From the NCBI GenBank assembly GCA_964016885.1, contig OZ024741.1, forward strand, positions 274,536,001-274,600,000: a stretch of 64,000 nucleotides of DNA. The letters run 5' to 3'. The stretch is from Eledone cirrhosa (Eukaryota). A program made the position numbers and the translations under genes. This document shows positions 17,744 to 17,915 of this stretch, piece by piece. The first letter of the stretch is position 1. Every line of letters starts with the position of its first letter. Under the pieces are notes generated by a model. That model saw nothing but the letters and a program-made list of their open reading frames with translations. It did not search any database and was not told the DNA's origin.

Positions 17744-17788
17744 AGCCGACAAGGCCTTGTTTCGCTTTTGTTGAAGCTTATCAAGGCT
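17744..17788 (-). ncRNA. Type I hammerhead, U3-A8 variant
   Basis: Exact reverse complement of 17871-17915. Confidence 0.85.
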
Positions 17789-17870
17789 AACTACTCCCAC
17801 CTGTCTACCGAGATCACTGATGTTATATTCTTATAGAATTCTAGTAAATAATCAGGAGCTGATTATGCAG

Positions 17871-17915
17871 AGCCTTGATAAGCTTCAACAAAAGCGAAAC
17901 AAGGCCTTGTCGGCT
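17871..17915 (+). ncRNA. Type I hammerhead, U3-A8 variant
   Basis: agcc-TTGATAA-gctt caacaa aagc-GAAA-caa ggcc ttg-TC-ggct; all three stems pair. Confidence 0.88.

Follow-up and report, generated by a model that had tools for sequence, protein, structure and literature searches.

U3-A8 hammerhead motifs in Penelope-like elements and retrozyme-like tandem repeats of Eledone cirrhosa

The genome of Eledone cirrhosa contains four repeat families, designated A, B, C and D, in which the hammerhead catalytic core carries U3 and A8 rather than C3 and G8. They are probably best understood as type I hammerheads of Penelope-like elements (PLEs), together with tandem retrozyme-like derivatives, in which C3-G8 likely changed to U3-A8 at least three times and cutting is predicted to take place in dimers. 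The swap itself is already known and has been in print since 2011, and the families described here are further examples of a published variant. Perreault et al. 2011 (PMC3088659) reported several natural hammerheads in which C3-G8 has covaried to U3-A8 and, citing Przybilski and Hammann 2007, stated that U3-A8 ribozymes were already active in vitro, which agrees, for other hammerheads, with the claim of an earlier sequence-only reading of this DNA that U3-A8 retains activity. The pairing of positions 3 and 8 in the active hammerhead, also claimed there, is stated for the C3-G8 pair of the active fold in PMC3884650. Whereas PMC3088659 describes scattered examples from many sources, the present cases are repeat families with copy counts and relatives.

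In a study by Cervera and De la Pena 2014 (PMC4209133), U3-A8 hammerheads of the Cercyon PLEs of Schistosoma mansoni were missed by a first descriptor and then yielded ~1,300 hits. Like the motifs reported here, those of Cercyon are described as minimal type I hammerheads located in the terminal repeats of PLEs, with a palindromic helix III and a predicted dimer action, and Cercyon copies on opposite strands, 100-700 bp apart, resemble the inverted arms found here. The present set differs in the long stem II insertions of B and C, in the presence of C3-G8 relatives and a C3·A8 subfamily in one genome, and in comprising four families (in two apparent PLE clades and two tandem repeats) with more than 22,000 pattern matches in the genome. 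These are missed by searches for CUGANGA only, as the earlier reading had anticipated, though this blind spot was already published (PMC3088659, PMC4209133).

Hammerhead folds in the 64-kb window

The window, i.e., the whole 64-kb stretch of DNA analysed, includes six core sites listed by the sequence-only reading, all of which proved to be type I hammerhead folds with U3 and A8 according to the descriptor and inspection of the core. The sites were real, but the numbers given for them mark ends of hammerheads rather than starts of cores (Table 1). U3-A8 cores are present at both 17871 and 17744, but the two are arms of one inverted insertion, which matches the 320-bp family A unit (taken from a tandem array in locus L008) at 98%; the two family A cores at 17744..17915 therefore represent a single event. 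The cores at 37204 and 37118 also carry U3-A8, but are likewise placed as inverted arms.

Table 1. U3-A8 hammerheads in the window and the insertion containing the family A pair
Position	Strand	Feature	Core and context
17583..18053		Family A insertion: minus-strand arm 17583-17873 and inverted plus-strand arm 17871-18053	Between (TA)n tracts
17744..17788	-	Family A type I hammerhead, 12-nt palindromic helix III, GUC site	TTGATAA 17784-17778, U3-A8
17871..17915	+	Family A hammerhead, inverted arm, truncated just 5' of stem I	TTGATAA 17875-17881; predicted cut after 17911
33595..33682	+	Family B hammerhead, 57-nt stem II domain, palindromic helix III, GUC site	TTGATAA 33600-33606; within 591-bp tandem unit
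37118..37153	-	Family D minimal hammerhead, inverted arm	TTGAAAA 37150-37144
37204..37239	+	Family D minimal hammerhead, ACCGGT helix III, GUA site, 3-bp stem I	TTGAAAA 37207-37213; PLE terminal repeat
41254..41347	+	Family C hammerhead, 54-nt stem II domain, GUC site	TTGAGAA 41259-41265; PLE terminal repeat
55749..55794	+	Family D' hammerhead, 8-bp stem I, stem II opening U·U, weaker fold	TTGAAAA 55757-55763
63530..63623	+	Second family C hammerhead	Core start +63535; in local duplication of 39079-41712

The type I core, consisting of (C/U)UGAN(G/A)A, GAAA and NUH in this order with three helices, was found in A, B, C and D. When positions 3, 7 and 8 were left free, the descriptor recovered stems I-III and the GUC site of A, B and C, whereas the D copies at +37207 and -37150 were recovered only when a stem I of 3 bp was allowed. 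D' at +55757, with its U·U opening of stem II, was not recovered; a U10.1·U11.1 opening also occurs among the hammerheads of PMC3088659. The folding z-scores of single motifs were weak (-0.4 to -1.9). None of these hammerhead motifs in the window was found by Rfam at the gathering score, and no hammerhead appeared among the best 150 of 426 Rfam E-value hits, which were mostly microsatellite-driven miRNA models.

The same window contains approximately 10 C3-G8 hammerheads and one decayed C3·A8 copy. The latter is the minus arm (36731) of an inverted insertion of a C3-G8 family, whose plus arm lies at 36850; it reads CTGACAA, likely a CpG decay of CTGACGA. A broken remnant of a Penelope-like RT and GIY-YIG ORF at 7646-9090 (-), ~52% identical to element C, adjoins an inverted C3-G8 hammerhead piece at 9047. 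Other features of the window include a ~2.7-kb local duplication (39079-41712 versus 61314-64000, 96% identity), additional repeat blocks around 36-38 kb and 59-60 kb, a gap of 200 bases at about 58.7 kb, broken non-LTR retrotransposon ORFs with endonuclease and RT motifs recognised by eye (19622-22756, 49622-50914 and 56148-57347), and a tRNA-like sequence at 52628-52699 (-), the sole Rfam match above the gathering score, which may be the head of a SINE.

States of positions 3 and 8 across the genome

Family members were counted in the 3.0-Gb genome by using exact sequence patterns, and reversed-pattern controls gave 0 matches. In family A, 473 of 477 matches read TTGATAA with positions 3, 7 and 8 left free. 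U3 was present in 6,002 of 6,015 matches to family B and in 12,670 of 12,763 matches to family D; position 8 was read in these two families for the non-U3 matches, which all carried A8 (13 in B, none with G8, and 93 in D), and for the first 100 matches listed, which were U3-A8 in 99 cases in B and in 100/100 in D. Family C had U3 in 3,095 of 3,426 matches, and a shorter pattern identified 80 non-A8 matches (41 U3·G8, 7 C3-G8 and 32 other). Subfamilies of C carry all four bases at N7 while retaining A8. Thus the count of 3-8 states per family, which the earlier reading had proposed as a check, gave U3-A8 as the consensus of all four families, and no C3-G8 subfamily was found within any of them by the family-wide pattern counts. 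This Watson-Crick pair predominates in all four families and is lacking in a C3·A8 subfamily of C.

An even sample of 95 evenly placed 10-kb stretches (950 kb) provided 58 descriptor hits, comprising 46 C3-G8, 10 U3-A8, 1 U3·G8 and 1 C3·C8, versus 2 in the reversed sequence, so that the hits exceed chance; a stricter cut-off gave 52 versus 2 reversed and a looser one 66 versus 6. Positions 3 and 8 formed a Watson-Crick pair in 56 of the 58 hits, a proportion that overstates pairing since the descriptor misses copies with a broken second stem II pair, including the U·U copies of C and the mismatch subfamily. The 58 hits fall into ~15 clusters, 4 of which are U3-A8. TTGANAA accounted for 798 of 7,950 NTGANNA words in 800 kb and is so common in the background that the core word alone proves little. 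The even sample also included a lone U3-A8 hammerhead of a fifth type, with a CAATTG helix III, at L052:6819 (-).

Host elements, origins and selection

The hammerheads of families C and D lie in terminal repeats of PLEs, flanking ORFs with RT and GIY-YIG domains that were recognised from motifs. The family C repeat borders an intact ORF of 718 aa within tandem units of 3,542 bp, and at several loci family D is found ~1 kb downstream of another ORF, which is at least 776 aa long. Pfam returned no family for the C protein; it carries RWR (RWK-like), DKT and a CxCX5C linker, features in common with the Hydra clade, while the D protein carries GxKF, DKG and a CX4CxxC finger, in common with Neptune/Nematis. 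By inspection of these motifs against PMC8557442, C looks like a Hydra-type and D like a Neptune/Nematis-type PLE, and the two proteins share 28% identity over just 72 aa. Insertion into (TA)n is described for PLEs of both groups, as seen here, and the inverted truncated copies with (TA)n targets fit PLE insertions; the accounts of these clades in PMC8557442 do not discuss core variants of the kind noted here in C and D. The youngest intact subfamily of C, 0.36% from its majority, is U3-A8. A sister family of D, found at four loci (L094, L086, L026 and L225), has a U3-A8 core with GCAA replacing GAAA, and the 3' ends of a relative of element C in L071 and L108 carry a hammerhead-like CAGAAGA (U4 changed to A).

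Families A and B consist of tandem units of 320 bp and 591 bp, respectively, with one hammerhead per unit. The units had no coding match, including in tblastn with six PLE queries, and no parent element was found for either. They appear to be retrozyme-like tandem repeats matching non-LTR retrozymes: animal non-LTR retrozymes (PMC7229834; bioRxiv 10.64898/2026.07.22.740005) are likewise described as low-G+C tandem repeats, dimers to multimers, with one type I hammerhead per unit. They differ from these in the U3-A8 core and in being known here from DNA sequence alone, and the B unit is longer than the 150-450 bp quoted for non-LTR retrozymes. Compensatory helix changes were counted for the A lineage only, in seven related rows forming three groups: 95% of cells were paired, 6 of 15 pairs had changed on both sides, and pairing this high occurred in 0 of 500 shuffles. 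Among relatives of family A at 81-84%, U3-A8 is fixed while all three stems covary.

Self-cleavage is predicted for the hammerheads of all four families. In a predicted fold of the family A monomer, the core pairs with helix III instead and is sequestered. The helix III palindrome is perfect in families A, B and D and imperfect in family C, where a weak hairpin can also form; the calculated energies of the helix III dimer duplexes were -19.5 (A), -12.9 (B) and -8.3 (D) kcal/mol, with 0.0 for the hairpin. PMC4209133 describes weak cutting by minimal PLE hammerheads, confined to dimers or trimers. In the proposed mechanism, the helix III palindromes of A, B and D would be too short for hairpin closure, so that two copies would pair in a tandem transcript and cleave it at GUC or GUA to give unit-length RNA, which would be circularised and then reverse-transcribed by the element RT into (TA)n tracts. 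Selection on a few source elements would mostly retain a Watson-Crick pair at 3-8, for which transitions would make U-A the alternative, with a constraint soft enough to allow the spread of a mismatched subfamily.

With regard to origins, U3-A8 likely arose about three separate times, as suggested by the divergence of the C and D proteins, the C3-G8 relatives of A and C, and the dissimilar units of A, B and C. Relatives of A with C3-G8 were found at L192 (homologous to the A unit over its full length, 348 bp at 74% identity, with CTGATGA at the matching place) and L027, and C3-G8 hammerheads terminate elements that are ~33% identical to C in their C-terminal domain at L237 and L095, as well as at L031, where U4 is changed; a 51% relative of C likewise combines C3 and G8 with an A in place of U4. 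A C3-G8 relative was not found for B in 1.77 Mb of loci, nor for D in the loci examined. The earlier reading had described four independent families, which is supported for A, for C, and for C versus D and is uncertain for B; moreover, identical copies numbering in the thousands descend from a few source elements and provide no separate evidence. It is very unlikely that U3-A8 arose once in an old element and was passed to all four families, either by descent or through terminal-repeat exchange, even though a derivation of retrozymes from PLE terminal repeats has been proposed (bioRxiv 10.64898/2026.07.22.740005), no parent element was found for A or B, and B and C share long stem II domains. 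The C and D proteins belong to apparently different PLE clades, A and C have the C3-G8 relatives mentioned above, each family has its own helix III and stem II, and the units of A, B and C show no significant nucleotide similarity (best E 0.08, in a comparison without D); a single origin for all four was rejected on the clades, the relatives and the dissimilar units.

The sequence-only reading had taken the double change as a sign of selection for self-cleavage. Family-wide U3-A8, stem covariation in A and the free N7 beside a retained A8 in C are consistent with this, but selection on the 3-8 pair is not absolute, given the C3·A8 subfamily and the GCAA-bearing sister family of D. The reading had also named an outcome that would overturn it, namely a C3-G8 consensus with the U3-A8 cores as sporadic decay products. 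Such decay, or chance matching, is barely credible: TTGANAA words are common, single-motif z-scores are weak, and one copy in the window (-36731, versus +36850) has decayed to C3·A8, but the family counts, with a U3-A8 consensus, no C3-G8 subfamily and empty reversed-pattern controls, rule it out. Another reading is a largely dispensable or partner-supplied hammerhead, with U3-A8 as a mild transition drift fixed by the luck of a few source elements and not by selection within each family. The C3·A8 subfamily reached ~310 matches, core-variant families with GCAA and CAGAAGA also spread, C-to-T and G-to-A changes both lead toward A+T in a window of 36.7% G+C, and PMC8557442 describes Naiad elements that amplify without canonical hammerheads and suggests that hammerheads may parasitise PLEs. 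Drift of this type, however, predicts scattered states at 3-8, whereas a Watson-Crick pair prevails among the sampled hits and is a minority state among background words; U3-A8 stayed fixed as the stems of the A lineage covaried, A8 is constant beside a free N7 in C, and the youngest intact C elements are U3-A8. It is regarded as unlikely, and retention of the pair by selection on few source elements is preferred.

The C3·A8 subfamily of family C

The C3·A8 subfamily is a more useful lead than the U3-A8 swap itself. Among the 331 non-U3 matches to family C, the first 100 listed comprised 94 C3·A8, 1 C3-G8 and 5 with a purine at position 3, and the subfamily size given above was scaled from this proportion. 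Most C3·A8 copies (found at L158, L167 and L201-L230, e.g., L228:5705 + and L229:5073 +) have common diagnostic flanks and retain GAAA and GUC along with the stems; the pairing may be shifted in these copies, with G7 as the partner of C3. They flank degraded ORFs, the mismatch being present at both ends of inverted insertions, and one such insertion also contains a U3-A8 copy. Mean identity was 92.7% for 12 C3·A8 copies versus 98.6% for the young U3-A8 subfamily, and by sequence comparison the C3·A8 subfamily is the older one, having spread from one source.

In the 849 coding columns with coverage in each of the three groups, the C3·A8 majority differed from both U3-A8 groups at 4 sites, compared with 61 and 18 differences of the U3-A8 groups' own, and its position appears to be almost at the node joining the two U3-A8 lineages. 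A first tree of family C, in which 19 rows out of 70 were retained and every C3·A8 copy was lost, was set aside; a second tree of 27 rows did not place the base, and polarising with a 56% identical outgroup did not place the root. Judged from these data, the subfamily is either a natural intermediate or a half-reversion, and three changes from a C3-G8 ancestor are needed in each case. A path in family C from C3-G8 through C3·A8 to U3-A8, possibly taken twice with the autonomous element mobile throughout, is conceivable but somewhat doubtful. Among the papers listed in literature searches none carried the term C3-A8, and the subfamily is not claimed to be unreported.

Whether PLEs need the hammerhead for retrotransposition is left open in the discussions of this point in PMC4209133 and PMC8557442, and the natural C3-G8, C3·A8 and U3-A8 states in related elements offer a ready series for testing it. 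A further U3 family, located at L089:369 (-) and L139:428 (-), has A8 in one copy and G8 in the other after C7, and is a possible wobble intermediate.
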